Source: Candidatus Nomurabacteria bacterium RIFCSPHIGHO2_12_FULL_42_19
GTDB taxonomy: Bacteria; Patescibacteriota; Minisyncoccia; Phycocordibacterales; UBA9973
NCBI GenBank assembly: GCA_001786955.1
Contig: MFUM01000004.1
Location: forward strand, 4,457 to 68,456
Reading direction: 5' to 3'
Length of the DNA: 64,000 bases
Shown: one piece after another, positions 5,265 to 51,241 of the stretch
How the letters are laid out: the number at the start of each line of letters is the position of its first letter
Position numbering within the stretch: position 1 is the stretch's first letter
Notes under the pieces: generated by a model
Databases searched by the model: none
What the model was told of the DNA's origin: nothing
The model's input: only the letters and a program-made list of their open reading frames with translations
Made by a program: the position numbers and the translations under genes

Positions 5265-6279
5265 TCAGAATTTCTTTATAAAGAGGAAGATTGTCCAGAA
5301 TTACCCCCGTCCCGCGAGCCACGGCCGAGAGCGGATCTTCCACTACATAAACCGGAATTTTAAGAACTCTTTGTAAAAGCTGGTCAAGCCCCGGAAGCAA
5401 AGCCCCGCCGCCGGACAAAGTAATCCCCCGATGCATTATGTCGGATAAAATTTCCGGCGGTGTCGTTTCCAGCATGTCTTTCACGCCTTCTACCAGACTT
5501 TTGATTGAAGATGAAAGCGCTTCACGAATATCGGAATCCGTCACCACTACTTCGCGCGGCAATCCGGTAAGAAGGTCCCGTCCGTGGACTTCTGTTTCCA
5601 TGTATTCTCCCTGGACAACGGAACCGATGGCAATCTTGACCATCTCGGCTGTCCGCTCTCCAATCAGTATTTTAAATTCATCGCGCATATAAGTGATAAT
5701 GTCATTATTCAGCCGGTCGCCGGCTATTTTCAGATTTTTTGACTTGACGATTCCGCCCAAGGAAATTACCGCAACATCTGTCGTTCCGCCGCCGACGTCT
5801 ATAATCATGGAACCAACGGGGTCTTTGATTGGAAGCCGGATGCCGATGGCGGCCGCCATCGGTTCTTCTACCAGGAAAACTTCCCTGGCGCCGGCGGAGC
5901 GCGCCGCATCGTAGACTGCCCGCGTTTCAACGTTAGTCGTGCCGGATGGCACGCCGACCAGGACTCTCGGCCGCGCCAACTTTTTGGACATTTTGTCGGC
6001 TTTGTTTATCAGATAGGAGAGCATTTCTTCGGTTACTTCAAAATCGGAAATAACGCCATCCACCAGCGGACGGATAGCTTTGATGTGCCCGGGAGTGCGC
6101 CCGAGCATTTCTTTGGCCTGCACGCCAACTGCCAGGATTTGATTGGTTTTGATGTTGACTGCCACGACTGAAGGCTCGTTGATTACGATACCGTGGCCTT
6201 TCAAATACACCAAGGTATTGGAAGTGCCCAGATCTATGCCGATGTCGTTGGAGATTAATTTGTAGAATTTTTCAAACAT
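5233..6279 (-). CDS. mreB: Rod shape-determining protein MreB (actin-like)
   Basis: 348 aa. Contains IGIDLGTSNTLVY, DVGGGTTDVAVISLGGIV and LSGGGALL. Confidence 0.95.
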   Translation of the reverse strand: MFEKFYKLISNDIGIDLGTSNTLVYLKGHGIVINEPSVVAVNIKTNQILAVGVQAKEMLGRTPGHIKAIRPLVDGVISDFEVTEEMLSYLINKADKMSKKLARPRVLVGVPSGTTNVETRAVYDAARSAGAREVFLVEEPMAAAIGIRLPIKDPVGSMIIDVGGGTTDVAVISLGGIVKSKNLKIAGDRLNNDIITYMRDEFKILIGERTAEMVKIAIGSVVQGEYMETEVHGRDLLTGLPREVVVTDSDIREALSSSIKSLVEGVKDMLETTPPEILSDIMHRGITLSGGGALLPGLDQLLQRVLKIPVYVVEDPLSAVARGTGVILDNLPLYKEILIGNQDELPPR

Positions 6280-8398: not shown

Positions 8399-9214
8399 AT
8401 GTCTATTCAAATCACCACAGAGCAAATAAAAGGGCTCCGCGATATGACTGGCATTTCGGTAATGCAATGTAAGCGCGCCTTGGAAGAAGCCGAAGGCGAT
8501 ATAAAAAAAGCGCTGGCTATCTTAAAAAAAACAAGCTCGGATATTGCGCTTAAAAAAGTTAATCGTGAAGTTAAAGACGGAAAAGTTTGCATTAAAACAG
8601 GAAACCTGCCTCCTGCCCGCGCAGGCGGGGCGCAGGCAGGTAAAAAAGCAGTCTTGGTGTCTTTGCGCTGTGAGACCGATTTTGTCGCCAGAAATGAAGA
8701 CTTCGCTAAGCTGCTGGAAAATCTTGCGGAAAAAGCGATAAAAGTCGGAGTAGAAGAAATGAAAAAGGAGGCCAAAGACATGATTGATGCTATAATCCAG
8801 AAAACCGGAGAAAATATCCAGCTTGGCGACACATATGAAGTAAATGGAGGTATTTTGGGAAATTACGTGCATAATAATAAGACTGGAGTTATCGTAAGCT
8901 TGACAGGGGGTGATGCGGAACTTGCAAAAGATATAGCCATGCACATAACTGCCATGAAGCCGGAATATATTTCGCAAGACGAAATAACAGAAGATGCCAG
9001 AAAAATAATGAAAGAAATTTTCGAAAAAGAAATAGCCAGTATGGACAAGCCTGCGGAAATAAAAGAGAAAATGCTTCTCGGAAAAATGGCGGCCTATTTC
9101 AAAGAAAAAACCCTGCTTGACCAGGCATTCATAAAAAACGGGGAAGAAACAGTGGGCCAGCTCCTGGAAAAAGCCAAGGCAAAAATAAAAGAAGTAAAAG
9201 CTTGCTTAATATAA
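8399..9214 (+). CDS. tsf: Elongation factor Ts
   Basis: 271 aa. The UBA-like N-terminus reads ITTEQIKGLRDMTGISVMQCKRALEEAEGDIKKALAILKK. It carries the GC-rich insert PPARAGGAQAGKK. Confidence 0.9.
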   Translation: MSIQITTEQIKGLRDMTGISVMQCKRALEEAEGDIKKALAILKKTSSDIALKKVNREVKDGKVCIKTGNLPPARAGGAQAGKKAVLVSLRCETDFVARNEDFAKLLENLAEKAIKVGVEEMKKEAKDMIDAIIQKTGENIQLGDTYEVNGGILGNYVHNNKTGVIVSLTGGDAELAKDIAMHITAMKPEYISQDEITEDARKIMKEIFEKEIASMDKPAEIKEKMLLGKMAAYFKEKTLLDQAFIKNGEETVGQLLEKAKAKIKEVKACLI

Positions 9215-14213: not shown

Positions 14214-15950
14214 TTATTTACGATTATTTTTAATATTCTCTTTTTTCTTATTCAATTCATTTATTTCCTTCAAAATCTTTTTACCTATTTCCTCATTAGA
14301 CGTTTGTCTTAATTCCAGCATTTTCTTGCTTAACTCTTCATTAATATTTTCTTCTTCAAGATTCAGAAACATCTCCGTTATGCTATTTTCTAATTTTTCG
14401 TTGTTCGTATAAAATACTTCTGCTTCGAATATAAGATCTTGTTTGACAACTTCATACTTTTTATAAACTTCTCCTAATTTTTCAAAAATTGCCTTAAAGT
14501 CTATAGCGGACGTTGGACGTCCGAGTTCCGGACGTCCAACGTCCGCTAAGCTTTGCTGCCAAAGAGCGATGCCCAAGAGTTTTCGCTCTATGTAATCTTT
14601 TCTGTACATCTTGGTTAAGCTCTCTCCCGCTTCCTTAATTTCTTCTTTTTCATATCTGAACTCTTGCTCAATTTTTTTTAAATCATCCTGTAATGCATTT
14701 TGAGATATGCCCGAAAGGTCGCTAATCTTTTTTATAAAATGCATTTTTTCTATCGAGCTTTCGAGCGCATTTACAAACGGTAATATTGTGCCTTTTATTT
14801 CCCTACCGGCCTTACGGGTGTCATTGCTATAATTTTTTAAAACTTTACTTAAAAGAAATTCTATAACGTGTTTAGAGTTTTTAATGGCTTCGCGCCAGGC
14901 ATCCGAACCCGTCTTCCCAATCAAATCCGCCGGATCGACACCATCAGGCATATCCACCACTTTTACATCCATCCCCAAAGAAAGAGCGATTTTGCCGGCA
15001 CGAATGGTCGCACTTGCCCCCGCCTTATCAGCATCAAAAGCAAGCACTAGATTCTCCGATAGGCGCCGCACCAGTCCTAAATTGCTTACAACATTTTCTT
15101 TTGAAACAGTAGAATCCGATAAAGCTGTGCCGGATGTCGCGATTGTGTTTTTATATCCCGCTTGATGCGATAATATCAAATCCATCTGACCTTCCACTAA
15201 AACAGAGAAGTTGTTCTTGCGGATGGAATCCTTAGCCTTATCAATTCCGTAAAGCACCGCATTTTTGCTGAAAATGGGCGTCTCGGGAGAGTTTAAATAT
15301 TTCGGTTCTCCTTCCCCTGTAATTCTTCCCGAAAACGCTATAACTCTTCCGCTTGAATCATTCATGGGAAACATAATTCTATTGCGAAAACGATCATAGT
15401 ATCCTTTCTCCGTTTTTTTAATTAGCCCGGCACGCTCTATTTCTAAATCACTAAAACCTGTCAACTTCAAGTGTTCATAAAGCGTCCGCCAGTCATCCTT
15501 CGCAAATCCAATACCAAAATCTTTGATTGTTTTTTCGCTCAGTCCTCGAGATTTTAAATATTCTATTTGTTTCGTTTCTAAGTTAGAAATAAAGAACTTC
15601 TCTGCTTTCTCCATCGCCCTGTATAATTTTTCTTTTTCGCTTTCCGCTTCTTTCATTTCTTTGCTGTAAGCCTTAAGAGGCACTCCGGCCCTATCTGCAA
15701 GAAGTTTTAATGCGCCTTTAAAATCAAGCCCTTCAAATTCCTCGACAAAGGTAAAAATATCACCCGACGCCCCGCAGCCAAAACAGTAATAAGTGCCGCG
15801 GTCGGGAGAAATGAAAAACGAAGGGGTTTTTTCATTGTGGAACGGGCATTTCGCCTTCAGGTTTACGCCTGTCTTCTCGAGCTTTATATAGGAAGAGACT
15901 ACTTCTTCAATCGATAGCCTCTCCTTAATTTTTTGTACGGGGGAATTCAT
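14214..15950 (-). CDS. dnaG: DNA primase
   Basis: 578 aa. CHC2 zinc finger [30 protein letters not shown], followed by a Toprim domain. It sits upstream of rpoD in the classic operon arrangement. Confidence 0.95.
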
Positions 15951-25145: not shown

Positions 25146-27167
25146 ATGAAGGAATCTAAAAACAAATTGCAAGGTATTATTTCCATCTCTTCAAAAGGCA
25201 CAGGCTATGTGGCAACCGGAGAAGTGAAGAATAAGGGCCAGGACCCGGAAATTGATTTCCAGCATTTAAATACCGCCCTGCACGGAGATATGGTAGAGAT
25301 AATCTTGCACCCGAAAGGTAAAAATCGCCAAACTGCTGAAGTTTCAAAAATAATATCGCGCGCAAAAATGAATTTCGCGGGAGTTCTGGAAGAAGAAAAC
25401 AAAATGTTCTTCCTGAAACCGGACGATACAAAAATGTATACAGATATTCTAATCCCAACCAAGTTTTTAAATAATGCGAAAGTTGGACAAAAGGTTTTTG
25501 TGGAAATAATTTCATGGAAAGATCCCCACAAGGCTCCGGAAGGAAAAGTAATAAAAGTTTTAGGCCGTCCGGGAGACAATGATACTGAAATGGAAAGTAT
25601 TGCGATAGAAAAAGGCTTTGATGCGAAACTTCCGCATAAAGTGGAAGAAGAAGCAAGGAAAATAAAGCAAAACGGCATTAAAGAAACCGACTATGCCGGA
25701 CGCAGAGATTTTCGCAAAACCCTGACCTTCACTATTGACCCCTCGGATGCGAAAGATTTTGATGATGCGATATCTTTCAGATTCCTCCCCTCCTTAAATA
25801 AGGAGGGGGCAGGGGGTGGTAATTCAAAAGACCACCCCGCCTCCGGCACCCCTCCTAAAAAAGGAGGGGAAGAGCAATATGAAGTCGGCATACACATCGC
25901 CGATGTCTCGCATTATGTAAAAATCGGCAGTGCTTTAGATGAAGAAGCGCGAGAAAGAGGAACTTCGGTATATTTGGTAGATAGGACGATACCAATGCTG
26001 CCGGAAACGCTTTCTAATGATTTGTGCTCTCTGGTGCCAAATAAAGACCGGCTTACTATGAGCGCAGTATTTATCATAGATAAAAATGCTCATGTAAAAA
26101 GCAAATGGTTCGGGCGCACGGTTATACATTCAAAAAAAAGATTTACTTACGAAGAAGCCGAGGAGTTAATAAAAAAATCCGCTGCGCCGTTCCATAAAGA
26201 ACTTTTTATCTTGAACAGCTTGGCAAAAAAATTAACCGGGGAAAGATTTGCGCAGGGCGCAATATCGCTTGACCAGGAAGAAGTAAAATTTGTTTTGGAT
26301 AAAAATGGAGTGCCGTTGAAAGTAATAAAAAAAGAGCGCGGCGATTCAAACAGGCTGATTGAGGAATTTATGCTCCTGGCAAATAAAAAAGTGGCGGAGG
26401 TCTTGTCTCCAAAAAATATAAAGGGTGTGAAAGATGAAGGCGTATCCATATACCGAGTGCACGATCTGCCGAGTAAGGAAAAAATGGCCGATCTGGCGTT
26501 TTTTTTGCGAAGTTTGGGACATAGAGTCTCCTTGCAGAACGGCCTTATCCCGACATATGAAATAAATAAGCTTCTAGAGAGTTTGGCCGGCAAAAATGAA
26601 GAAGATACGGTGCATCGCGCAGTTATCCGTTCTATGGCTAAAGCGCTTTATTCCACCAAAAATATCGGGCATTACGGTCTGGCTTTTCAATATTATACTC
26701 ACTTCACTTCCCCGATTAGGCGCTATCCGGACATCATGGTGCACAGACTTCTGGAAAAATTCCTCTCTGGCAAAAAAATAAAAAAGGAGGATTTAAAAGA
26801 GAAATTAATCGAATATGAAAAAATCGCCCTAAATGCATCCGAACAGGAAAAACGCGCCGCAGATGCCGAACGAGCTTCCATAAAATATAAACAAGTGGAA
26901 TATATGTCCAGATATCTGGGAAAAAGCTTCGACGGGGTAATCAGCGGGATAACCGAGTGGGGCATGTATGTGGAAGAACTAGAGACAAAATGCGAAGGTT
27001 TGGTGCGGGTACGTGATATGAATGACGATTTTTATATTTTCAATGAAAAAAAATTGGAATTAACCGGACAAAAAAAGAAAAAAAAGTACAGGCTCGGCGG
27101 CCGTGTCAAAATAAAAGTAAAATCGGTTGATTTGGAGAGAAAAACGATAGATTATATATTGACATGA
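25146..27167 (+). CDS. rnr: Ribonuclease R (RNB family 3'-5' exoribonuclease with a C-terminal S1 domain)
   Basis: RNB motifs DPSDAKDFDDAISF and HIADVSHYV, plus HYGLAFQYYTHFTSPIRRYPD. Start taken at 25146 (MKESKN...) because the ORF track's 24954 overlaps rpsP. It carries an 88-nt GC-rich in-frame element. Confidence 0.9.
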   Translation: MKESKNKLQGIISISSKGTGYVATGEVKNKGQDPEIDFQHLNTALHGDMVEIILHPKGKNRQTAEVSKIISRAKMNFAGVLEEENKMFFLKPDDTKMYTDILIPTKFLNNAKVGQKVFVEIISWKDPHKAPEGKVIKVLGRPGDNDTEMESIAIEKGFDAKLPHKVEEEARKIKQNGIKETDYAGRRDFRKTLTFTIDPSDAKDFDDAISFRFLPSLNKEGAGGGNSKDHPASGTPPKKGGEEQYEVGIHIADVSHYVKIGSALDEEARERGTSVYLVDRTIPMLPETLSNDLCSLVPNKDRLTMSAVFIIDKNAHVKSKWFGRTVIHSKKRFTYEEAEELIKKSAAPFHKELFILNSLAKKLTGERFAQGAISLDQEEVKFVLDKNGVPLKVIKKERGDSNRLIEEFMLLANKKVAEVLSPKNIKGVKDEGVSIYRVHDLPSKEKMADLAFFLRSLGHRVSLQNGLIPTYEINKLLESLAGKNEEDTVHRAVIRSMAKALYSTKNIGHYGLAFQYYTHFTSPIRRYPDIMVHRLLEKFLSGKKIKKEDLKEKLIEYEKIALNASEQEKRAADAERASIKYKQVEYMSRYLGKSFDGVISGITEWGMYVEELETKCEGLVRVRDMNDDFYIFNEKKLELTGQKKKKKYRLGGRVKIKVKSVDLERKTIDYILT

Positions 27168-29100: not shown

Positions 29101-31374
29101 TTATTTCGCAATTTGAGTAGCTTCTTCGAATTTTACCGAGAGAAGTTTGGAAGCTTCGTTGGAGCCGATGGTGACGCCGTAAAGAATTCCGGCTCTGGAC
29201 ATCGTTTCGCGGTTGTGGGTAACGACGATAAGCTGGGATTGCTTGGAGAGCTTCTCCAGCATATCCCCGTATTTTCGGGAGTTTGCTTCATCCAGCGCCG
29301 CATCCGTTTCGTCCAGCACCAAAAAAGGCGGCGGATTGACTTGCGACATAGCGAAAAGAAGGGCAATGGAAGTAAGCGACCTTTCTCCCCCGGAGAAAGC
29401 GTGAAGTTCCTTGACTTTCTTGCGCGGCAAAGAGACATTGATTTCTATTCCTTTTTCAATAACGATGTTCTCATCATCTTCTGATTCCCCCATTTCATCG
29501 TCATCTTCATTGATTTCATCAACTTTTTTCTTCTTAGTTTCAATAATAGAAATAGATCCGTGTCCGCCGCCAAACATTAATGAAAAGAATTCTTGAAACT
29601 CTACGTTGATTTTTTTGACACCTTCCTTGAATTCCGTATCTATTTTTTCCTTCAAATCAGCAATAAGTATAACCAGAGATTCAATGCTTTTGGATAAATC
29701 TTCCATTTCTTTCGTTAAAAATTGATCCCGCCCGGAAACTTCTTTATATTCCTTTATCAATTCCGCTCCGTTGCCCAGGCCCGTATCTTCTAATTTTATT
29801 TTTATGCGCTCAATTTTTTTCTTTTGGTCTTCTTGGTTATGCAATTCCCCGTTGTTTTCAATTTTATAGTCCTTATAAGAAAAAACTTCCCGTCCAATCA
29901 GGATTTCCCCTTCTTTTATCTCATTTTCAAAAGATTCGGCCCTATTTTTCAAATTCCCTTCTTTGATAGCCACAAGTTCCAGAGCGGAAGACAATTCTTG
30001 TTGTCTGACTCTCCAGGCAAATTTCTCCCGTTCAAGATCGCGTAAGGCCTCCATTTCCTTGTTTATTTCTTGTTTCAGTATCTCTATTGATTTGGCAATT
30101 TCTTTTTCTTTGCTTTCAATCCCTTTCATTTCTTCCAAGATTGCCTGCTGGGTTTTTTTTAGTTTTTCAATTTCTAAATTGTGGCTGGATTCATCCTTGT
30201 CATTTTGAGAGAATTTTTTCAAAATATTCTTAATACTCTCCAAAACGGGCCTAATCTCCTCAATACTTTCTTTTAAAAAAGCCAAATCTATAGAATTATT
30301 TATCTCACTGATTATGGCTTTGATTTCTTCCTGTGAAATTTCTATAAATAGGGATTTCTGTTCTTTCCTGCGTTCTTCCATTTCAACCATTCCCTCTATC
30401 CGCCCAAGCTTGCGTTCTATTTCACTTTTTACTCCGCGAAGGGAGTTGAGGCCTTCCTCAATTTTTCTCAATTCTTCTATTTTACCCCCACCCATCCTCC
30501 CCCTTATTAAGGGGGAGGTGTCAGAATGACGGAGGGGGTCGTTGTTTTCAACAATAGAAATTTTACCAGTTACATTTTTAAGTTCATTTGAAAGCTTGTT
30601 CCTTTCAGATGATAAATCGGCTTTCTCTTTCTCCAAAAAGATGCTTTCTTTCTTCAGATATTCCCCGTAAAGAGCCGTCAGCTCTGTTTGCATTTCTTTT
30701 GTTTTTTCAAATTTTTCCACCTGTTTCTTGAGAAAGTTAAGATGTGGGGCATTTTCCCGCCGCATTAAGGAAACCTCTTTCATGTTTTCATTCGTCCGTT
30801 CAAGTTTTCTCTCGCTTTCTTTTATCTTATATTGATAAATTTTAAGTCCCAAGGCATCTTCTACCATTTCTTTTTTTTCTCTTGCATTGGCGCTCAAAAT
30901 CCTGTCTGTCTCGCCCTGAGAAATAATGTGATGCCCGGAAGAACCTATGTTGACCGAGGCCAGCAAATTGTGAATATCCTTCAGTCTGACTTCTGTGCCA
31001 TTTAAAATATATTTATTCAACCCATCGGAAAAAACCTCGCGGGAAATTGAAATAACATCATAATTCAAATTAATATTCTCTCCCCCGTCATTGGAAAGCT
31101 TGAAAATTTTGTCGGAATTATTGAAATAGATGGTGACGGACGCCCGTGAGGCTTTTGGCAGATTTTTAGAACCTTTAAAAATGAGATCCGAACCGCCTTT
31201 TCCGCGCATGGATTTCATGGATTGTTCGCCCAAAACAAAGCGGATGGATTCCACCACATTGGATTTTCCGGATCCGTTCGGGCCGACAATGGAAACAATG
31301 GGATTTTCAAACTCTAAAACAGTTTTTTGGGCAAAAGACTTAAAACCATTTAGCTGGAGTGTTTTGAGCCGCAT
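29101..31374 (-). CDS. smc: SMC-family ATPase (chromosome segregation protein with a short coiled-coil)
   Basis: 757 aa. Walker A GPNGSGKSN at the N-terminus. C-terminal LSGGERSLTSIALLFA and LVLDETDAALD. Shorter than the canonical SMC (about 1180 aa). Confidence 0.8.
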   Translation of the reverse strand: MRLKTLQLNGFKSFAQKTVLEFENPIVSIVGPNGSGKSNVVESIRFVLGEQSMKSMRGKGGSDLIFKGSKNLPKASRASVTIYFNNSDKIFKLSNDGGENINLNYDVISISREVFSDGLNKYILNGTEVRLKDIHNLLASVNIGSSGHHIISQGETDRILSANAREKKEMVEDALGLKIYQYKIKESERKLERTNENMKEVSLMRRENAPHLNFLKKQVEKFEKTKEMQTELTALYGEYLKKESIFLEKEKADLSSERNKLSNELKNVTGKISIVENNDPLRHSDTSPLIRGRMGGGKIEELRKIEEGLNSLRGVKSEIERKLGRIEGMVEMEERRKEQKSLFIEISQEEIKAIISEINNSIDLAFLKESIEEIRPVLESIKNILKKFSQNDKDESSHNLEIEKLKKTQQAILEEMKGIESKEKEIAKSIEILKQEINKEMEALRDLEREKFAWRVRQQELSSALELVAIKEGNLKNRAESFENEIKEGEILIGREVFSYKDYKIENNGELHNQEDQKKKIERIKIKLEDTGLGNGAELIKEYKEVSGRDQFLTKEMEDLSKSIESLVILIADLKEKIDTEFKEGVKKINVEFQEFFSLMFGGGHGSISIIETKKKKVDEINEDDDEMGESEDDENIVIEKGIEINVSLPRKKVKELHAFSGGERSLTSIALLFAMSQVNPPPFLVLDETDAALDEANSRKYGDMLEKLSKQSQLIVVTHNRETMSRAGILYGVTIGSNEASKLLSVKFEEATQIAK

Positions 31375-32110: not shown

Positions 32111-33041
32111 CCGCCTTGCTAATTAACGGGATAATGTCGTTATAAATACGGAGTTCCGGGATTGCGGAAAGCTCAAACCATCTTGCCCCATCCAGTCCGC
32201 CGGATTTTTCCAAGGCAAGTTCTCTGTATTCGCTCTTGGCTAAAAAATAAACCACCTTTTTCAGGCTTTTTCCTTTTTCTGGATGCGTTGCCACATATTC
32301 GTTTTCCCCCAATTTTTCTTCCATTTTAATATCAAGCCCGATTTCTTCCTTTATTTCTCTGATTGTCGCTTCTTCTTCGTTTTCTCCCTTTTCAATACTG
32401 CCCTTGGAAATAGTCCAATAGCCGAAAACATCATGCACTAATGCAAAAAAGACTTTGTTATTCTTTTTCGCATAAACAAGCGCTCCGCCTTTTTTCTCAA
32501 CTGGCAATTTTGCAGTATCCGGCACTTCTTCGTGTTTTTTCTTTCTGCTGACTTGTTCTTTTCCGGGCTCGCCTATTTCTTTATAAACCGCGCCTAAGAC
32601 GCCGTTGACGAATTTACCGGAATTCTCTCCGCCGAAAGTTTTTGCCAGTTCTATCGCTTCATTGATAGCCACTTTCGGAGGCACTTCCTTCCTGTCGCCA
32701 AAAAGGAGCTCCGTTAGGCCGATTCTCAGAATATTCCTGTCAACAACAGAAATCTTATCTATCGGCCAATCAGGCGCGGCCTTTTCTATGATTTCGTCAA
32801 TCATTGCGCGCTTCTTTAACACTTTATCCATAAGCGAGAACACAAAAACATCATCCTCCAACCCTGGGGCAAATTCTTTTAAATTTCTTTTGAGAATATT
32901 ATTTATCTCTCCGGAAATATCGGAATTGCTGATTTTCTTATCATCGGACCCGCCTGCGCTCGACTGTGGCGAGGCGAGCAGGAAATCCCACTCAAAAAGC
33001 GTCTGAAGAACTATTGATCTGGAAAGGTGCCTATTTGCCAT
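32079..33041 (-). CDS. nusB: NusB-like antitermination domain fused to a C-terminal NUDIX hydrolase domain
   Basis: 320 aa. The N-terminus [20 protein letters not shown]...[11 protein letters not shown] is NusB-like. The C-terminus carries a Nudix box [23 protein letters not shown]. Confidence 0.75.
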
Positions 33042-33074: not shown

Positions 33075-33133
33075 CACCTCACCCCCGACCCCTCTCCTTA
33101 TCAAGGAGAGGGGTGCCAAAGGCGGGGTGAGGT
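33075..33133. repeat. Intergenic copy of the GC-rich hairpin element family (CCTCTCC-TTATCAA-GGAGAGG core with an outer inverted repeat CACCTCACCCC / GGGGTGAGGT)
   Basis: Same core as the in-frame copies in pheS, rnr and smc. It also sits in terminator position after rpmF. Confidence 0.6.
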
Positions 33134-33432: not shown

Positions 33433-35208
33433 ATGGAAAAGACTGAAAAACTAGGCAATTTAAGGCATACTCTGGCTCACCTGCTCGCATCGGCCATCGG
33501 AGAGATTTATAAATTTGATAAAATCAAACTTACCCTCGGTCCGGCCATAGATAATGGCTTTTATTATGATATTGATTTTTGCGGCGAAAAAATGACCGAT
33601 GCGGATTTGAAAAAAATTGAAGATAAAATGCGGAAAAATTTGCCTAAATGGACAGAATGGGAACATAAAGAAATAAGCAAGGACGAAGCGTTAGAATTTT
33701 TCAAAAACGAATACAAGGCGGAATTAATAAATGAAATCGCCCTACGCGGAGAGAAAATTACTACTTATACTTGCGGAGGATTTACTGATTTATGCCGTGG
33801 TGGACACTTGGCGCATCCGTCTAAAGAAATAGATCCGGATTCTTTCAAGCTGGACCGCGTGGCCGGCGCTTACTGGCGAGGAGATGAGAAGAACAAAATG
33901 CTCACCCGAATTTACGGATTGGCTTTTGAGACCAAAGAAGAACTGGATGCATATTTAACACAAAGAGAGGAAGCAGAAAAAAGAGACCATCGAAAGCTCG
34001 GACAAGAGCTTGATATTTTTATTTTTGATGACGATGTCGGCCCGGGACTTCCGCTTTGGTTGCCAAATGGCGCCGTGATTATTGAAGAACTGGAAAAATT
34101 AGCAAAAGAAACGGAAGAAAAAGCCGGATATGTTCGTGTGCGCACTCCCCATATTGCCAAAGAATCAATGTATAAAAAAAGCGGGCATTTGCCTTATTAT
34201 GCAGACAGCATGTATTCGCCGATGGACTGTGAAGGAGAAAATTACTATCTCAAAGCGATGAATTGCCCGCACCATCATAAAATTTTTGCCGCGCGGCCAA
34301 AAAGCTATCGTGATTTGCCCCTGCGGCTTGCCGAATATGGCACAGTCTATCGTTATGAAAAATCCGGAGAACTTTTCGGGCTTATGCGCGTACGCTCCCT
34401 CTCAATGAATGACGCGCATATTTATTGTTCGGAAAAACAATTCGCGAATGAATTTCGCGCAGTTAATGAAATGTATCTTAAATATTTTAAAATTTTCGGA
34501 GTTGAAAAGTATATAATGCGATTCTCTACCCATGATCCGAAAGAACTTGGAAAAAAATATGTGGACGAACCGGAGCTCTGGCTGAAAACGGAAAAAATGG
34601 TCCGTGATGTTCTGATTGAATCAAAAATTCCATATGTTGAGGTGCCGAATGAAGCGGCTTTTTATGGGCCAAAAATAGATGTGCAAGTCTGGAGTGCTAT
34701 TGGGAAAGAGTTTACTCTGGCCACCAACCAGGTTGATTTTGCAGTGCCTAAGCGTTTTGATTTAACATTCACAAATAAAGAAGGCAAGGCAGAAACTCCG
34801 CTTTGTATCCATCGTGCGCCGCTCGGCACCCATGAAAGATTTATCGGCTTCTTGATTGAGCATTATGCCGGCATCTTCCCTCTTTGGCTCTCGCCAGTGC
34901 AGGTAAAAGTAATTCCTGTCCGCACAAATCATAATGAATATGCGAAGCAGATTTTTGAATTATTAAAAGAAAATAACATCCGTGCGGAATTGGATGATAG
35001 CGATGAAAACCTCGGCACAAAAGTCCGCGATGCAAAAAATAAAAAAATGCCTTACTGGATAGTCATCGGCGACAAAGAAATAGAAGCAAAAAAAGTAACT
35101 CTTGAATCCCGCCTGCCTGCGCAGGCAGGCGACGCTGGACAATTAGGACAAATTTCAAAAGAAGAACTCGTCGCAAAACTTGTGGCCGAGGTCAAAATTA
35201 AAATATAA
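33433..35208 (+). CDS. thrS: Threonyl-tRNA synthetase (short form lacking the N-terminal TGS domain)
   Basis: HTLAHLLASAI (SAD motif), class II motifs, and an anticodon-binding C-terminus. The ORF track starts at 33403; the ATG at 33433 (MEKTEK...) is an alternative. It carries the palindromic insert GCCTGCCTGCGCAGGCAGGC. Confidence 0.88.
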   Translation: MEKTEKLGNLRHTLAHLLASAIGEIYKFDKIKLTLGPAIDNGFYYDIDFCGEKMTDADLKKIEDKMRKNLPKWTEWEHKEISKDEALEFFKNEYKAELINEIALRGEKITTYTCGGFTDLCRGGHLAHPSKEIDPDSFKLDRVAGAYWRGDEKNKMLTRIYGLAFETKEELDAYLTQREEAEKRDHRKLGQELDIFIFDDDVGPGLPLWLPNGAVIIEELEKLAKETEEKAGYVRVRTPHIAKESMYKKSGHLPYYADSMYSPMDCEGENYYLKAMNCPHHHKIFAARPKSYRDLPLRLAEYGTVYRYEKSGELFGLMRVRSLSMNDAHIYCSEKQFANEFRAVNEMYLKYFKIFGVEKYIMRFSTHDPKELGKKYVDEPELWLKTEKMVRDVLIESKIPYVEVPNEAAFYGPKIDVQVWSAIGKEFTLATNQVDFAVPKRFDLTFTNKEGKAETPLCIHRAPLGTHERFIGFLIEHYAGIFPLWLSPVQVKVIPVRTNHNEYAKQIFELLKENNIRAELDDSDENLGTKVRDAKNKKMPYWIVIGDKEIEAKKVTLESRLPAQAGDAGQLGQISKEELVAKLVAEVKIKI

Positions 35209-38412: not shown

Positions 38413-40269
38413 TTACCGCACTTGCCAACCATTATTCTCCTTGATTTTATTGGTTATTTGAGTCATAACTGCATTTATTTCCGCATCTGTAAGAGTCCTA
38501 TCAAAAGACTGGAAAACTACCCTAAAAGCATAAGAGATTTTATCGTCCTTTTTAAACTCATCAAAGAGTTCCGGGCCACGAATTGCAAGACTTCCGGCAT
38601 TATTTTTTATAATTTTTTCTACATCTTTACTTTTAACTCCCTCCGGCACCCAGACGGCAATATCGCGTGCGATAAAAGGAAACAAGGACCACATCTTAAA
38701 AGCTCCGCCTGTGTGCTTTTGCGAACGGTGACGTTGCGAAGCAGGATATTCCTGAGCAAAAGCATCAGGCGAGGCTGATTTACAAAATTCTTCAAGACTC
38801 ATTTCTTTTACTTCTTTTTTATTTCCATAAGCCACATTCATTTCTTCCCCGCTCTTTTTAAACACCGTTCCAATTTCAAAAATTTTTATTTCGTCCATCC
38901 CCAACAAAGGCACGTTGAGTTGGTTTAATTTCAAACTTTCCTTCAGTCCGTCAGTCAGATTCGTCCGCAAAAATTTTTTATCCGAAGCGCTCTGCATCAC
39001 TTCCACTTCCCCACTATTACAAAAAGTATAAGTCATTACTTCACTATATCCTTCGCCGAGCAATTTATTTCTCGCCCAGGAAATCTTCGCATAAGTTTCA
39101 TTTACTTTTGTTTTAAAATTAATTTTTGGTATTTTTCCTTTTACTTTGTCATAGCCAATAATCCTTCCGATTTCTTCTGCCATATCTTCCTCAATTACTA
39201 AATCAAGCCGCATCGGTGGCACGGTGATTACGTATTCTTCTCCCCCTGCTAAGGGGGAGTGCCCATCGGGCGAGGGGGTCTTTGTATATTCAAAGTTATA
39301 TCTTTTCAAAATATCTTCCACTTGAGACACAGAAATGTCCAAACCAAGAATTTTTGAAATTTTTTCCACCGAGAAAGAAAGCTTTCTGATCTCCTGTTTT
39401 TGGGGATAGACATCGACAATGTTTTCAAAAATAGCTTCCGGACACATTTCTAAAATAAGCGCCGATAATTCCAGCATAGCGTGCGGGCCAAGTTCCGGAG
39501 ATAAATCGTTTTCAAAGCGCTTGCGTGCGTCCGTAAATATATTCAAAGCCTGCGCGGTTTTTCTTACGGAAGTTGGATTAAAATTAGCAACTTCCAGAAT
39601 TATATCTTTTGTATTATTATCTACTTCCGCAATTTTCCCGCCCTTGATGCCAGCAATGGCTAAGACATTCTTATCGTCCGAAATGACCATATTTGAAGAT
39701 TTGAACTTTATTTCTTTATTGTCCAGGGTGGTCATCTCCTCGCCGTCTTTACCGTTTCGGACAATTATGTCGCCCTGTATTTTATCCAAATCAAAAGCAT
39801 GTGCGGGCTGACCGCAATCAAACATCACAATATTCGCCGCATCTACCACATTATTTATGCTTCTCTGCCCTATTGACTCCAGATGCTTTATGACCCATTC
39901 CGGACTGGTGCCAATTTTAATATTCTTTACAATTCTCCCCATATATCTTCTACATTTATCTGATTGGACATCAATTTTTAATTCTGCCTGCCCCGCCGGA
40001 GCCTTGGGCGCAGGCGGGGGAATTTTATACTTCGGAGCAGGATCAACATACTTTATATTTAAAAGTGAAGCGAGTTCACGCGCCACGCCCTGGTGGCTAA
40101 GTAAATCATGCGCGCGGTTTGGCAAGATTTTCAAATCAAAAATATTATCATCCCCTTTTTTCTCTAAACTCTCAACTTCACAAAGATGGTAATTAAAAAC
40201 ATCCACAAATTTTTCTGCATCAGGTGCTTCCGGTATATACCATTTGAGCCAATTGTAAGAAATCAACAT
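38413..40269 (-). CDS. pheT: Phenylalanyl-tRNA synthetase beta subunit (shortened)
   Basis: 618 aa. N-terminal MLISYNWLKWYIPE, plus B3/4 and B5 cores. Two GC-rich in-frame inserts are present. Confidence 0.9.
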   Translation of the reverse strand: MLISYNWLKWYIPEAPDAEKFVDVFNYHLCEVESLEKKGDDNIFDLKILPNRAHDLLSHQGVARELASLLNIKYVDPAPKYKIPPPAPKAPAGQAELKIDVQSDKCRRYMGRIVKNIKIGTSPEWVIKHLESIGQRSINNVVDAANIVMFDCGQPAHAFDLDKIQGDIIVRNGKDGEEMTTLDNKEIKFKSSNMVISDDKNVLAIAGIKGGKIAEVDNNTKDIILEVANFNPTSVRKTAQALNIFTDARKRFENDLSPELGPHAMLELSALILEMCPEAIFENIVDVYPQKQEIRKLSFSVEKISKILGLDISVSQVEDILKRYNFEYTKTPSPDGHSPLAGGEEYVITVPPMRLDLVIEEDMAEEIGRIIGYDKVKGKIPKINFKTKVNETYAKISWARNKLLGEGYSEVMTYTFCNSGEVEVMQSASDKKFLRTNLTDGLKESLKLNQLNVPLLGMDEIKIFEIGTVFKKSGEEMNVAYGNKKEVKEMSLEEFCKSASPDAFAQEYPASQRHRSQKHTGGAFKMWSLFPFIARDIAVWVPEGVKSKDVEKIIKNNAGSLAIRGPELFDEFKKDDKISYAFRVVFQSFDRTLTDAEINAVMTQITNKIKENNGWQVR

Positions 40270-40280
40270 AAATTAAGTTA

Positions 40281-41072
40281 TTAAAACTGATTGAGGCGTA
40301 AATCTCCCTGATAAAAAAGTCTAACATCCGGAATACCCCATTTAATCATAGCAATACGGTCCAATCCTCCGCCGAAAGCAAAACCTTGGTATTTTTTAGG
40401 GTCCAAGCCGCAATTTTTGAGTACATTTGGGTGTAAAACACCTGAACCCATCATCTCAAGCCACTTCCCTTTGAACTTGGCGAAAACTTCCAGAGATGGT
40501 TCGGTAAAAGGGAAAAAACTGGGGCGAAATTCTACCTCCACATCATCACTCAACATTTTTTTGTAAAAATGGGTTAATACGCCCTTCAAATCAGCAAGGG
40601 AAACATTTTCTCCCACCATTGCTCCGTCTATCTGATAAAATTGCATTTCGTGCGTTGCATCCGTAGCTTCGTTGCGGAAAACTTTTCCGATGGAAATAAA
40701 AGCGGCTGGCAATCTGCCGTCTTTGCCCGCTTGCTCAATCGCGCGGGCGGTTACGGTCGTCGTATGTGTTCGCAACACAGATTTTGAATTACCACCCCCT
40801 GCCCCCTCCTTATCAAGGCGGGGAGGATTCTTTTCTCCTCCTGCCTGAGGAGGAGTGCCCGAAGGACGAGGTGGTTCTTTTATCCAAAATGTATCCTGCA
40901 TATCCAGCGCCGGATGGTCTTTCGAAAAATTCAAGGCGTAAAAGTTATACCAGTCGCTCTCCAGCTCCGGCCCGGTCGCGATTTCAAAACCAAGCTCCGA
41001 AAAAGCCCGATAAGCCTCCTCGGCTAACAGAGAAAGCGGATGTATTGTGCCCTTTTTTATGTCTTCGTTCAT
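40281..41072 (-). CDS. pheS: Phenylalanyl-tRNA synthetase alpha subunit (lacks the N-terminal coiled-coil)
   Basis: 263 aa. Class II core FRPSFFPFTEPS and GFAFGGGLDRIAMIKWGIPDVRLF. Carries an 87-nt GC-rich in-frame element. Confidence 0.9.
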   Translation of the reverse strand: MNEDIKKGTIHPLSLLAEEAYRAFSELGFEIATGPELESDWYNFYALNFSKDHPALDMQDTFWIKEPPRPSGTPPQAGGEKNPPRLDKEGAGGGNSKSVLRTHTTTVTARAIEQAGKDGRLPAAFISIGKVFRNEATDATHEMQFYQIDGAMVGENVSLADLKGVLTHFYKKMLSDDVEVEFRPSFFPFTEPSLEVFAKFKGKWLEMMGSGVLHPNVLKNCGLDPKKYQGFAFGGGLDRIAMIKWGIPDVRLFYQGDLRLNQF

Positions 41073-44818: not shown

Positions 44819-47014
44819 TTATAACATACTTAAAAATTCTTTCTCGCTTAATATTTTTACACCCAGCTTTTCGGCAACTTTAAGCTTGGAGCCCGGGTCC
44901 GCTCCGGCTACGATATAGGAAGTATTTTTTGAGACGGAACCCGCGACTTTCCCTCCGAGAGCCAGGATTCTTTCTTTAGCAATTTCTCGGGACATTTGGG
45001 AAAGCGTCCCGGTCAAAACGAAATGTAATTCGGTAAATTTGTCGGCTTTCTTTTTTTCCGCTCTTTCCACGATTACGCCATTTCTTTGCAATTTTTTTAT
45101 GAAATTCAAATTATTTTTATTATTAAAAAAATCATAAACGCTTTTTGATACAGCCGGGCCGATGTTTTCTATACTATCTATCTCAGCAAGGACTCCCCTT
45201 GCTGAAGTTATTAATTTTTCCAGAGTGCCAAAGTGTAGCGCTAAATCTCTTGCTGTTTCCTCCCCCACATGCAGGATTCCGAGCGCCCACAGAAAGCGTG
45301 AAAAAGGGATTTTCTTTTTATTTTTTATTTCATTGATTATGTTTTCCGCCGATTTTTCCCCAAAGCGTTCCAGGAGCGCTATATCTTCTTTTTTAAGGGT
45401 GAAAATGTCGGCTGCGTCGGTAATGAGCCCTTCGTCCTTGAATCTTCTCAGTATTTTCGGGCCTAATTCATAAATTTCAAAGACAGAAACAAAATGCTCT
45501 AAATACCTTTCGTTTTTTGCCGGGCATTTAGGATTGCTGCAATAATGAGCGACAGAGATATTCTCCAGCTCGCAAGATTTCTGAGTCGCGTAAGTCCCAC
45601 CCGGTACCCCGGGAAGGGTCAAGCGCGAAGAAATCTCGTGAGCCGAAGAATCCCCCATCTTTTTCTTCCTAACTTTTCCTCCGCAGGCCGGGCATTTGTC
45701 CGGCATTTTGAATTTTTTTTCTTTGCCTGTCCGCATCCGAATCAGCACCTCCACTACTTTCGGTATCACATCGCCGGCTTTTTCTATCACGACCGTATCC
45801 CCGATACGCAAATCAAGGCGCTCTATCTGGTCCATATTATGGAGAGTAGCCTTGGACACCCGGGAACCCGCCACCAGCGTCGGCTCAAAAAGAGCGAGCG
45901 GTGTCAATACACCGGTACGCCCGACATTTACCTTTATATCCTTTACTATTGTTGTCGCTCTTTCCGCCGGATATTTGAATGCCACCATAAAGCGCGGCGC
46001 CTTGCCGACCACCCCTAGTGTCTCCTGTAATTTCAAATCGTCCACCGAGACAACGACGCCGTCCGTGCCGTAGAGAAAATCGGGCCTGATTTTTTCAAAT
46101 TTCTTTATGAAAGTAAACACTTCATTCATATTAGCGCACAGAGCCTCCAATTTCTCAACTTTAAATCCAATCCTGCGGAGCATTTGATGTTTTTCGGAGT
46201 GGGTTTGCATAGCCGAATCATGAATTTTCTGAGTCGCGTAAGTCCCACCCCGTACTCGGGGAAGGGTCAAGCGCGAAGAAAATTCATGATTCGGCGTAGC
46301 CTCGGCTATATCGTAAGCAAAAAAATCCAATTCCCTTTTGGCGGCTAATTTTGGATCCAGCTGCCGCAAACTTCCTGCCGCGGCATTTCGGGTATTGGCA
46401 AAAAGGGGTTTTCCTTTTTTCTCATTTTCTTTATTCAATTTAACGAGCATTTCTTTGCTCAAAAGCGCTTCTCCGCGGATTTCCAGGTGCGGAAGGTATG
46501 GTTTTTGGAGAAGAAGTGGAATTGAATGTATGGTTTTGAGATTTTGGGTTATGTCTTCCCCAATTAATCCGTCTCCTCTCGTTGCGCCGCGCATAAACTT
46601 GCCATTTTCATAAACAAGCGAAACTGCCAACCCGTCAAACTTGACTTCGCAAAAATAATTAAATTTCGCGCGCGCAGGTAAAAGCTTTTTGATTCTTGTT
46701 TCCCACTCATATAATTCTGTCTCACTAAAAGCATCATTAAGAGAAAGCATGCGGGTTTTGTGCTGAACTTTTACAAATTTATTAAGCGGTTTGCCGGCTA
46801 CTCTGTTTTCCGGAGCATTTAAATCGTTAAATTCGGGGTATTTTTTCAAAAGCTCTTTAAGCTCGTGAGTGAGAGAATCGTAAACATCGTCGGTTACACC
46901 GGGGGCGTTTTGGGTATGATATAAATCACGCAAACGCGCGATTTCTTTTCGTAATTTTTTTACCCGCTTGGATTCGGCGAGGCTGGTTCTTTTTTTATCT
47001 TCCACCTCTTTCAT
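44819..47014 (-). CDS. ligA: NAD-dependent DNA ligase
   Basis: 731 aa. Adenylation domain (KFDGLAVSL), OB fold, Zn finger, HhH and BRCT. It contains two in-frame copies of a TIR-flanked repeat element. Confidence 0.92.
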   Translation of the reverse strand: MKEVEDKKRTSLAESKRVKKLRKEIARLRDLYHTQNAPGVTDDVYDSLTHELKELLKKYPEFNDLNAPENRVAGKPLNKFVKVQHKTRMLSLNDAFSETELYEWETRIKKLLPARAKFNYFCEVKFDGLAVSLVYENGKFMRGATRGDGLIGEDITQNLKTIHSIPLLLQKPYLPHLEIRGEALLSKEMLVKLNKENEKKGKPLFANTRNAAAGSLRQLDPKLAAKRELDFFAYDIAEATPNHEFSSRLTLPRVRGGTYATQKIHDSAMQTHSEKHQMLRRIGFKVEKLEALCANMNEVFTFIKKFEKIRPDFLYGTDGVVVSVDDLKLQETLGVVGKAPRFMVAFKYPAERATTIVKDIKVNVGRTGVLTPLALFEPTLVAGSRVSKATLHNMDQIERLDLRIGDTVVIEKAGDVIPKVVEVLIRMRTGKEKKFKMPDKCPACGGKVRKKKMGDSSAHEISSRLTLPGVPGGTYATQKSCELENISVAHYCSNPKCPAKNERYLEHFVSVFEIYELGPKILRRFKDEGLITDAADIFTLKKEDIALLERFGEKSAENIINEIKNKKKIPFSRFLWALGILHVGEETARDLALHFGTLEKLITSARGVLAEIDSIENIGPAVSKSVYDFFNNKNNLNFIKKLQRNGVIVERAEKKKADKFTELHFVLTGTLSQMSREIAKERILALGGKVAGSVSKNTSYIVAGADPGSKLKVAEKLGVKILSEKEFLSML
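45568..45643. repeat. ligA in-frame repeat element, copy 2 (imperfect TIR GCTCGCAAGATTTC / GAAATCTCGTGAGC plus a conserved structured core)
   Basis: Core TGAGTCGCGTAAGTCCCACCCGGTACCCCGGGAAGGGTCAAGCGCGAAG. It encodes SSRLTLPGVPGGTYATQK inside the ligase Zn finger, between the two Cys pairs. Confidence 0.7.
46212..46295. repeat. ligA in-frame repeat element, copy 1 (17-nt perfect TIR GCCGAATCATGAATTTT / AAAATTCATGATTCGGC plus the same core)
   Basis: The core differs from copy 2 at three positions. Two of them are compensatory within the stem CCCCG-TACT-CGGGG versus CCCGG-TACC-CCGGG. It encodes SSRLTLPRVRGGTYATQK in the adenylation-domain region. Confidence 0.7.
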
Positions 47015-49238: not shown

Positions 49239-50063
49239 CTAAAAAAGACGCAATTCAAAAAGAAACGCCAAGAGCGCGCCTAAAACCAGATATGGAGCAA
49301 AGGGAATTTCGCTTTTTATTCCGTATTTTTTAGAAAAAACAACAAGAGAAAGACCGACAATGGCCCCAAGCCAGAAAGCGACCACAAGGCCGGAGAATGC
49401 GCGCGCGAGCCCAAGCAGCCATCCCAAGCCGACTGCCAGTTTGGCATCCCCCAGCCCCATCCAAGTTCCGGAAGACACGAGCCAAAATAAATAAAAAGGT
49501 AAAGCAATCAAGAAGCCGGACAAAAATTCCAAAATTGAAGGCATGTGCGGATAAAAACCTGCCTGCGCCCAGCCTGCGCTGGCAGAAGACAGGCCAGAAT
49601 TGTTAAAAAAGAATAAGCCGATAAAACCAAGAGCGCCTAAGGCAAAAGCGAGCGAGTCGGGGATTATTTTATGCCGGAGGTCGTAGACGGCAATAACCAC
49701 CAGAAGCGCGAATATCGCGGCATAATAAGCATAAGCGATAATAAATGCGGGAGTAAAAAAACTAAACTGTCCGCCCAGGGCGGAAAACTTTAAAAAGAGC
49801 GCCGCAAAAATCAGGCCGGTCGCCAGCTCGACCAAAGGATAGGAAATTGAGATTCTTGTTTTGCAGGTTCGGCATCTACCTCCCAAAACAAAAAAACTTG
49901 CGAGCGGGACAAGCTCATACCAGCAAAGAGTATTCTGACAGGACATACAGGCGCTTCTCCCGCCGAAGGATCTCTCGGTGTTCAGCCGGGCAATGACAAC
50001 ATTTAAAAAACTTCCGATAATCAGGCCAAAAAAAAAGAAAATAATTGTAACTACAATGATCAT
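49239..50063 (-). CDS. pilD: Prepilin peptidase (A24 family, leader peptidase / N-methyltransferase)
   Basis: 274 aa. Zinc motif CMSCQNTL...CRTCKTRISISYPLVEL, multiple TM helices, catalytic Asp region MGLGDAKL. Confidence 0.9.
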   Translation of the reverse strand: MIIVVTIIFFFFGLIIGSFLNVVIARLNTERSFGGRSACMSCQNTLCWYELVPLASFFVLGGRCRTCKTRISISYPLVELATGLIFAALFLKFSALGGQFSFFTPAFIIAYAYYAAIFALLVVIAVYDLRHKIIPDSLAFALGALGFIGLFFFNNSGLSSASAGWAQAGFYPHMPSILEFLSGFLIALPFYLFWLVSSGTWMGLGDAKLAVGLGWLLGLARAFSGLVVAFWLGAIVGLSLVVFSKKYGIKSEIPFAPYLVLGALLAFLFELRLF

Positions 50064-51112: not shown

Positions 51113-51241
51113 AATCTTAATTTCTAAACTAAATTAATAATAATTAATAATGCAATTTCGACTCCCGCCTGCTCCCATAGGGCGGGCAGGTATTTTTAAT
51201 ACGTTCATTATAACATATATGCAAAAAAGTTATCCACACCC

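Follow-up and report, generated by a model that had tools for sequence, protein, structure and literature searches.

Palindromic DNA inside protein-coding genes has been described before. The Rickettsia palindromic elements (RPEs) lie in frame in unrelated housekeeping genes, to which they add a peptide compatible with the protein fold; they have no transposase, and their way of moving is unknown (PMC10969869). The GC clusters of yeast mitochondrial DNA include polymorphic in-frame insertions in var1; they decay rapidly, and new forms arise when they fuse or nest (PMC8811140). We describe here an 18-bp perfect palindrome, CCTGCCTGCGCAGGCAGG, in thrS, the gene for threonyl-tRNA synthetase (ThrRS), in a 64-kb stretch of a Candidatus Nomurabacteria genome (contig MFUM01000004.1; the whole stretch is called the window hereafter). 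The palindrome is an insertion, it has relatives in other genes of the window, and perfect copies recur far beyond this genome. In its manner of working it resembles both RPEs and the yeast GC clusters, yet it belongs to neither group. We interpret it, with moderate confidence, as a non-autonomous, ultra-short palindromic insertion element that has been filtered by selection into permissive loops.

Like RPEs, members of the 18-mer family occupy, in frame, positions that the protein fold can accommodate in housekeeping genes unrelated to one another. RPEs, however, are about 100–150 bp long, encode tens of conserved residues and are restricted to Rickettsia, whereas the present unit is a loopless perfect palindrome of 18 bp (with variants of 33–36 nt) that is found across a superphylum; the two are set apart by their lengths and host (here Patescibacteria) rather than by sequence comparison. 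With yeast GC clusters the 18-mer shares the character of a GC-rich palindrome inserted in frame and polymorphically in an AT-rich genome (the window is 41% GC and the thrS insert 78%). GC clusters are mitochondrial, measure about 30–50 bp with loops and are bordered by AG or TAG repeats that have been read as target duplications; the 18-mer, in contrast, is bacterial, is flanked by a purine (R) and a pyrimidine (Y) without repeats, shows no duplication at thrS and gives no sign of being bypassed.

Several other systems can be set beside it. Miniature inverted-repeat transposable elements have terminal inverted repeats around an internal segment and a target-site duplication, whereas the 18-mer is inverted repeat throughout. 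Repetitive extragenic palindromes (REPs) and REPINs are, like the 18-mer, dispersed and non-autonomous, being GC-rich hairpins of 20–40 nt without a target duplication. They are extragenic, number tens to hundreds per genome, are species-specific in sequence, bear a conserved tetranucleotide on the 5′ side and are accompanied by the gene for a REP-associated tyrosine transposase (RAYT), whereas the 18-mer is mostly intragenic, rare as a perfect copy and shared across classes; no RAYT-like or Y1 HUH gene was found among the approximately 58 open reading frames (ORFs) of the window. Elements of the IS200/IS605 kind insert without a target duplication, 3′ of a specific tetra- or pentanucleotide. 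At the 18-mer no duplication is seen, and its flanks show the R/Y preference and no conserved tetranucleotide. The PstI palindromes of Neurospora mitochondria, the subject of work by Yin et al. in 1981, are said to be dispersed, to lie near tRNA genes and to have a highly conserved 18-bp GC-rich core with two PstI sites. They resemble the 18-mer in the length of the core, in residing in an AT-rich genome and in their proximity to tRNA genes (here a tRNA-Gln fragment), but they are organellar and mainly intergenic, and CTGCAG is absent from the 18-mer; this distinction is drawn from their description. Finally, HIP1 and the DNA uptake sequences (DUS/USS) are likewise short, sequence-defined words that also occur within genes and show reading-frame preferences, but they are 8–12 nt long, occur about once per kilobase and arise by point substitution, whereas the 18-mer is rare and enters as an insertion. 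Full-text searches of the literature, covering part of the journals and directed at the peptide, at palindromes in Patescibacteria or the candidate phyla radiation and at in-frame palindromic elements, yielded no description of this family or of the LPAQAG insert.

The thrS insertion and its relatives in the window

The initial annotation had placed GC-rich palindromes in frame in thrS, tsf, pheT, pilD and nusB. All five sites are present in these genes, whose products Pfam identifies as ThrRS, EF-Ts, PheT, prepilin peptidase and a NusB–NUDIX fusion (coordinates are collected in Table 1). The thrS site had been given as a perfect 20-mer (RCCTGCCTGCGCAGGCAGGY) encoding PAQAG. It is indeed perfect, but with its flanks it is a 22-mer (CGCCTGCCTGCGCAGGCAGGCG, positions 35110–35131) with 11-bp arms and a loop of zero, and the codons at 35113–35130 specify six residues, LPAQAG. 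Shuffles (n = 100) gave no other match to it at three or fewer mismatches, and its predicted RNA fold exceeds that of shuffled sequences (z = −3.0).

That the palindrome was inserted is seen at the DNA level in a sister species (L001), whose ThrRS is 89% identical to that of the window and lacks the insert. The sister gene reads gaatccc/gcgatgct, and the window has 18 additional nucleotides at the point marked by the slash. Deleting CCTGCCTGCGCAGGCAGG from thrS gives back TCC CGC GAY exactly, with a boundary that can slide by at most two bases. LPAQAG is absent from all 59 of the other closest ThrRS orthologues (the sister species and 58 more), and the insert is present in each of the four sequence variants of the window species and in none of the three of the sister cluster. 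It is fixed in this Candidatus Nomurabacteria species. There is no target duplication at thrS, the sole filled and empty pair available at the DNA level for the 18-mer family. Taken alone, thrS would fit a 16-nt core bordered by a 2-nt GC duplication. Only 12 of the 77 copies have GC...GC flanks, however, and because the flanks elsewhere (generally R...Y) are not direct repeats, such a duplication does not suit the family as a whole.

An assembly or library error, or a chance run of GC-rich words, is exceedingly improbable as the source of the inserts. The ThrRS and EF-Ts of the window are 100% identical to proteins from Candidatus Nomurabacteria metagenome-assembled genomes (MAGs) from Rifle groundwater (RIFCSPHIGHO2_01_FULL_41_91 for both and, by name, GW2011_GWC2_41_8 for EF-Ts), and the same sequences stand on many independently assembled contigs. 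The same alleles occur in independent MAGs and assemblies of different years and sources, the copies are in frame, orthologous copies are at different stages of decay, and shuffle expectations are between 0.00 and 0.08.

The placement in surface loops that had been proposed was borne out in AlphaFold2 models of two hosts, in both of which the insert forms a β-hairpin turn of low confidence. In ThrRS, whose model has a mean pLDDT of 74, it joins strands 554–559 and 570–575 of the anticodon-binding domain as a loop in which pLDDT stays below 50; in EF-Ts (mean pLDDT 89) it is the turn between strands 60–69 and 82–91, with pLDDT near 54, and the loop that carries it reads ...TGNLPPARAGGAQAGK. We also noted other short insertions in the same ThrRS loop of three orthologues (P0026, P0042 and P0051). 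The loop of P0026, R-D-LPAGAG-G, resembles a decayed copy displaced one codon downstream.

The five sites of the window share the half-site GCGCAGGCNGG. It occurs eight times on the two strands, always within the five sites, against an expectation of 0.08 and a maximum of one in shuffles, and a looser hairpin pattern has 11 matches against 0.8 in simulations. Of the palindromes that the initial annotation had called perfect or nearly so, only that of thrS is perfect; the tsf and pilD copies are imperfect, two-tier hairpins and those in pheT and nusB are weak. Likewise, the (A/P)-Q-A-G peptide attributed to all five is encoded in thrS, tsf and pilD, whereas pheT has PAGQA and nusB SSAGG.

The tsf and pilD copies form the longest inverted-repeat pair of the window (8605–8641 with 49557–49593; 37 nt, 89% complementary). 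In the 36-nt architecture of tsf, an outer CCTGCCT/AGGCAGG stem encloses an inner CCCGC-GCAG-GCGGG hairpin. The pilD copy has the same frame and architecture, with A:T in place of a C:G pair of the inner stem; the pilD composites of three lineages share the inner form CCAGC...GCTGG, a compensatory change of the pair. The predicted RNA fold is strong for tsf (−27.6 kcal/mol, z = −3.6) and evident for pilD (z = −2.7), whereas pheT (z = −1.6) and nusB (z = −0.9) show no clear gain over shuffles. In approximately 2 Mb of fetched loci the 36-nt composite was found only in tsf and pilD.

Comparison with orthologues supports the insertional origin that had been proposed: the segments of thrS, tsf, pilD and nusB are each absent from orthologues, and that of pheT amounts to some six extra residues. 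Most of 120 EF-Ts orthologues are 259 residues long and empty at the insertion point, where scattered ones carry LPAQAG, LPAQTG, LPAQSG, LSAQAG, LPAGKAG and similar sequences. One of them, P0131, carries the same 12 residues as the window, LPPARAGGAQAG, and the composite in L006 matches at 35 of 36 nt although tsf as a whole is 74% identical there. Most of 120 PilD orthologues also lack the segment, and scattered ones have at the same point either LPAQAG or 12-residue composites (the latter in P0268 and P0313). A T run that follows the pilD copy is a conserved F-Y codon pair, seen too in orthologues without the insert. At the nusB point L121 has a perfect LPAQAG 18-mer and the sister species LPATAKATAG, whereas orthologues about 50% identical (L253 and L015) are empty. 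The pheT segment lies in a variable linker and is compared with representatives at 50–57% identity. The nusB and pheT sites are diverged or weak relatives, and we assign pheT to the family only tentatively.

The composites bear on a local origin, in which each palindrome would arise in place, with no transfer between sites, when replication switches template or slips at GC-rich codons already present (quasi-palindrome correction). Template switching can perfect quasi-palindromes, and the composites do resemble duplications of arm segments (CCTGCCT-CCTGCCC and GCGCAGGCGGG-GCGCAGGCAGG). The empty thrS site of the sister species, TCCCGCGAT, contains no precursor, however, and the same 18-mer at unrelated loci and across phyla is beyond the reach of local processes. 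We consider such an origin improbable, while local template switching may explain the growth and upkeep of copies that already exist.

Insert lengths of 18, 33 and 36 nt are all multiples of three. This argues against the idea that the hairpins are not translated, being instead excised from the mRNA or passed over by the ribosome, as in Magnusiomyces mitochondria. GC clusters in yeast mitochondrial genes can indeed be skipped in translation (PMC8811140), but neither lengths divisible by three nor the strong reading-frame bias described below would be needed if the inserts were skipped, and decayed, poorly folding copies are still in frame. Bypass is accordingly very improbable.

Two conventional identities were considered for the five sites and rejected. 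All of them are inside ORFs and none is a full terminator-like site in a scan for intrinsic terminators, which at these sites listed just a weak 5-pair sub-hairpin (40002–40019, + strand); it overlaps the element of pheT, a gene that runs on the other strand. As to known structured RNAs, Rfam 15 at the gathering score matches only tRNAs in the window.

Distribution, reading frame and flanks of the 18-mer

Exact 18-mers were sought in GTDB, with one genome per species, and in JGI metagenomes; each scan returned at least 120 loci. Among the GTDB matches listed, about 63 are Patescibacteria by name and about 14 Bacteroidota, the rest being mixed. The Patescibacteria carriers listed include WWE3, Microgenomates, Saccharibacteria and Paceibacteria groups, the last represented by Nomura-, Kaiser-, Zambryski-, Yonath-, Wildermuth-, Woese-, Gottesman-, Shapiro-, Beckwith-, Dojka- and Uhrbacteria. 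The host contigs are mostly low in GC, and a hand estimate puts the chance rate of the 18-mer in DNA of 40% GC at about 2e-12 per position. The family thus spans Patescibacteria and is not peculiar to the window genome. Matches in high-GC genomes, and in most viral contigs, are probably chance or unrelated repeats.

Perfect copies are sparse: there is one in the window, there are at least three on a 599-kb contig (L018, L056 and L073), and the highest count per genome is at least seven. This last is from a Sphingobacteriales MAG (L019, L043, L084, L092, L099 and L120), in which the copies are the tips of longer, REP-like intergenic hairpins. A candidate transposon at L043, consisting of two copies that flank 2.2 kb, was rejected: its interior is a housekeeping operon and its ends are such tips. 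Carriage by phages was also considered, and among 25 matching viral contigs, most with a GC fraction of 0.58–0.67 and three low in GC, there was no sign of spread. In four Paceibacteria lineages (L036 1735, L048 3540, L049 6792 and L053 372) a perfect 18-mer lies in the D-stem of a partial tRNA-Gln that consists of the 5′ portion (GGATCG/TCTAATGGTAGGAC); this fragment is flanked by the gene for a RarA-like ATPase and by an intact tRNA-Gln.

Within genes the 18-mer is preferentially read in one frame. It contains a stop codon in no frame, and among perfect copies in long ORFs of low-GC sequences the frames LPAQAG, PACAGR and CLRRQ occur in the ratio 33:11:5 in GTDB genomes and 42:6:12 in JGI metagenomes, two samples that may overlap. 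Copies are not confined to genes, as about 64% lie within ORFs of at least 120 residues and 28 of 77 copies in low-GC genomes lie outside long ORFs. The frame bias and the copies outside ORFs together fit a DNA-level element that is filtered by translation.

Selection for the peptide itself, LPAQAG being a useful loop or motif (such as a sortase- or protease-like site) reached by convergence, is largely refuted and in our estimate highly improbable. The dominance of the LPAQAG frame would be expected, and the superficial likeness of LPAQAG to LPXTG also counts in its favor. But in every lineage checked at the DNA level the insert reads xxC CTG CCT GCG CAG GCA GGY, and the same codons are found in the thrS, tsf and pilD copies of several lineages, though Leu, Pro, Ala and Gly have four to six codons each. 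Because these codons are fixed while the window genome uses all synonymous codons for the same residues, it is the DNA, not the peptide, that is conserved. That DNA is perfectly palindromic, and some copies are read in one of the other two frames, stand between genes or lie within a tRNA fragment; the host proteins, moreover, are cytosolic housekeeping enzymes.

The flanks are equally simple. In copies read in the LPAQAG frame a purine precedes the 18-mer in 29 of 33 cases and a pyrimidine follows it in 28 of 33, and the R/Y preference holds outside ORFs (42 of 56). No target motif beyond R/Y is shared among the flanks, and the palindrome extends into them by only one base.

An insertion element of the kind we propose would behave as follows. 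Its unit would be the 18 bp CCTGCCTGCGCAGGCAGG, usually preceded by a purine and followed by a pyrimidine, and new copies would be pasted into the chromosome with no duplication of the target. With no stop codons and a length divisible by three, a copy landing in a gene would add six residues, which we presume to be translated. Selection would purge most copies; survivors would be those in permissive surface loops, with the LPAQAG frame preferred as least harmful. Copies would later decay and presumably be lost by hairpin-mediated deletion, or grow into two-tier hairpins of 33–36 nt. Fixed insertions appear to be frequent compared with the permissive loops available, and the same loops would for that reason be struck repeatedly in different lineages. 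The mover might be a trans-acting activity that recognizes the DNA in its hairpin or cruciform form, and it may belong to the HUH enzymes that act on single strands (IS200/IS605 or RAYT); this is a guess, made because of the dependence on a hairpin and the lack of target duplication.

Gain, decay and recurrence of copies

The presence of inserts among orthologues is patchy and does not indicate simple vertical conservation. The motif does occur in distant orthologues, which the initial annotation had held would count against insertion, but the closest relatives are without it while distant ones have it: the 20 closest tsf and the 17 closest pilD relatives of the window have no insert, and carriers of the same composite rank beyond the hundredth. 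Rough neighbor-joining and Fitch counts give at least 10 changes on the tsf tree and at least nine on the pilD tree. Copies also form a decay series. In 1.06 Mb of low-GC loci we counted, apart from the copies used as seeds, about six perfect copies and about 16 with one to four mismatches, where 0.7 were expected at four mismatches, and the changes among copies are largely C to T. These data let us estimate, to an order of magnitude rather than by measurement, that some hundred insertions become fixed in a genome for each unit of synonymous divergence. Such a rate would suffice for a limited set of permissive loops to be hit repeatedly.

Several findings weigh against an insertion element. 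Copies recur at the identical codon in distant orthologues, which is awkward for untargeted insertion: a Kaiserbacteria ThrRS (L064), just 47% identical to that of the window, has LPAQAG at the identical CCG/CGAC point, the tsf composite is shared at 35 of 36 nt, and the pilD composites have a gene-specific variant of the inner stem in common. The palindrome is perfect at the apparently orthologous tRNA-Gln locus of four lineages whose flanks have diverged. The recurrence at identical codons and the conservation at the tRNA-Gln locus could both reflect selection on the sequence itself. No movement of copies has been observed, and the 18-mer family offers a single filled and empty pair at the DNA level. 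Pfam revealed no transposase, integrase, HNH or Y1/HUH gene among the window ORFs, and when ORFs of at least 100 residues were clustered from 75 low-GC loci, no gene family was enriched beside copies; the families that recur there are housekeeping ones only (RarA-like ATPase, ABC transporters and UvrD helicases).

The main rival is a functional palindromic site or hairpin under selection. The 18-mer would be a cis-element, either a target for a dimeric DNA-binding protein, as parS and operators are, or an RNA or DNA hairpin for nuclease action, termination or processing; the sites would be old and their patchiness due to losses. The sequence is identical across classes of Patescibacteria, and copies at orthologous sites are conserved far above synonymous sites: the host genes of carrier lineages are about 70% identical in nucleotides, with four-fold sites saturated (0.24–0.41), whereas the inserts they carry are 83–100% identical. 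The persistence of the perfect palindrome between the RarA-like gene and tRNA-Gln, and the compensatory C:G to A:T difference between the tsf and pilD composites, are of the same tendency. So is the result of a search of metagenomes for a symmetric double variant containing CCTGCCYGCGCRGGCAGG, in which all 74 of the low-GC matches listed were canonical at the tested pair of positions; because they were all canonical, however, this search cannot tell selection on structure apart from young age. Other features fit a functional site poorly. At every site examined the closest relatives have no insert, and the insert is dispensable for that reason. The copies sit in coding loops of essential genes that are unrelated to one another, and their positions follow no logic; their mismatch spectrum resembles birth and decay, uncompensated single changes (LPAQTG, LSAQAG, LPAQSG) are common, the frame bias reveals a cost that acts through translation, and there is neither an Rfam family nor a canonical terminator context. 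On balance we regard a selected cis-element as unlikely, though less so than any other alternative considered here, and continue to favor the insertion element.

A bolder form of this interpretation can be put forward only tentatively, as something we think possible but would not yet bet on. The 18-bp palindrome may be among the smallest sequence-defined mobile units, active across Patescibacteria and perhaps in some Bacteroidota, and inserted at R/Y steps with no target duplication by machinery that recognizes a hairpin or cruciform. Its turnover would be so high that the same surface loops of EF-Ts, ThrRS, NusB and PilD were remodeled repeatedly in separate lineages, or else old copies would be actively targeted or renewed.

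If our interpretation is true, an 18-bp insertion family is active in Patescibacteria, whose genomes are very small, and six-residue loops are continually gained and lost in their essential proteins, which would explain part of the lineage-specific insertions in the proteins of these bacteria. It would also set a lower size limit for a recognizable mobile or insertional DNA family and raise the question of what moves a bare hairpin. In practice, the inserts would be markers of recent divergence and population structure in groundwater communities, and they would warn annotators and phylogeneticists that loops of the LPAQAG type at the same site need not share ancestry. Most deserving of follow-up is the repeated appearance of copies at the same codon in lineages far apart.

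Other hairpins and repeats in the window

The view of the initial annotation that small palindromic DNA has colonized coding sequence is supported by the roughly 11 kb of genes that the window has in common with the sister species. There the window lineage has three extra GC-hairpin inserts, belonging to at least two families, in RNase R (78 nt), SMC (36 nt) and ThrRS (18 nt). The sister species has at least one candidate insert of its own, in RNase R (27 nt, 56% GC).

Table 1. Positions of palindromic inserts, hairpins and repeats in the window
Feature	Position	Strand	Sequence or product	Remarks
thrS, perfect 18-bp palindrome	35112..35129	.	CCTGCCTGCGCAGGCAGG	18-nt gap in sister species
tsf, 36-nt two-tier variant	8606..8641	+	CTGCCTCCTGCCCGCGCAGGCGGGGCGCAGGCAGGT; encodes LPPARAGGAQAG	fold; orthologue gaps
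pilD, 36-nt two-tier variant	49557..49592	-	sense CTGTCTTCTGCCAGCGCAGGCTGGGCGCAGGCAGGT; encodes LSSASAGWAQAG	orthologue gaps
nusB, diverged or expanded relative	32949..32981	-	sense CTGCTCGCCTCGCCACAGTCGAGCGCAGGCGGG; 11 residues	first loop; half-site GCGCAGGCGGG kept
pheT, weak member (tentative)	39984..40021	-	sense ...CCCCCGCCTGCGCCCAAGGCTCCGGCGGGGCAGGCAG...; PPAPKAPAGQA	half-site GCGCAGGCGGG on + strand
RNase R, other hairpin family	25783-25873			
pheS, other hairpin family	40782-40855			
SMC, other hairpin family	30496-30518			
pheT, other hairpin family	39240-39259			
Intergenic, other hairpin family	33088-33114			
mreB, perfect 20-nt palindrome	5843-5862		CCGATGGCGGCCGCCATCGG	
dnaG, adjacent 17-nt hairpins	14507-14545		CGGACGTTGGACGTCCG and CGGACGTCCAACGTCCG	
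ligA, 64-nt direct repeat	45578-45641 and 46226-46289			gene at 44819-47014; copies 91% identical, 648 nt apart
Intergenic GC hairpin followed by a T run	51164-51187		CCCGCCTGC..GGGCGGGCAGG	3′ of pilin gene

Other in-frame hairpin families of the window have a GC stem and an AT loop (CCCCTCC..GGAGGGG, GGGGTGG..CCACCCC and CCTCCCCC..GGGGGAGG). The RNase R triple hairpin (26 residues) and the SMC hairpin (12 residues) are absent from the sister species. A 32-nt segment in RNase R (25798–25829) is 100% identical, in inverted orientation, to one in pheS (40782–40813). The pheT loop that has a different hairpin family in the window is the loop that carries the 18-mer element in L056.

A few isolated features complete the list. 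The mreB palindrome is unrelated in sequence to the CCTGCC family, and dnaG has a pair of adjacent hairpins. The intergenic hairpin downstream of the pilin gene is terminator-like and shares words with the family. Finally, in ligA, the gene for the NAD-dependent DNA ligase, Pfam matches the adenylation domain in two stretches, and the long direct repeat may stem from a duplication within the gene or from inserted sequence.

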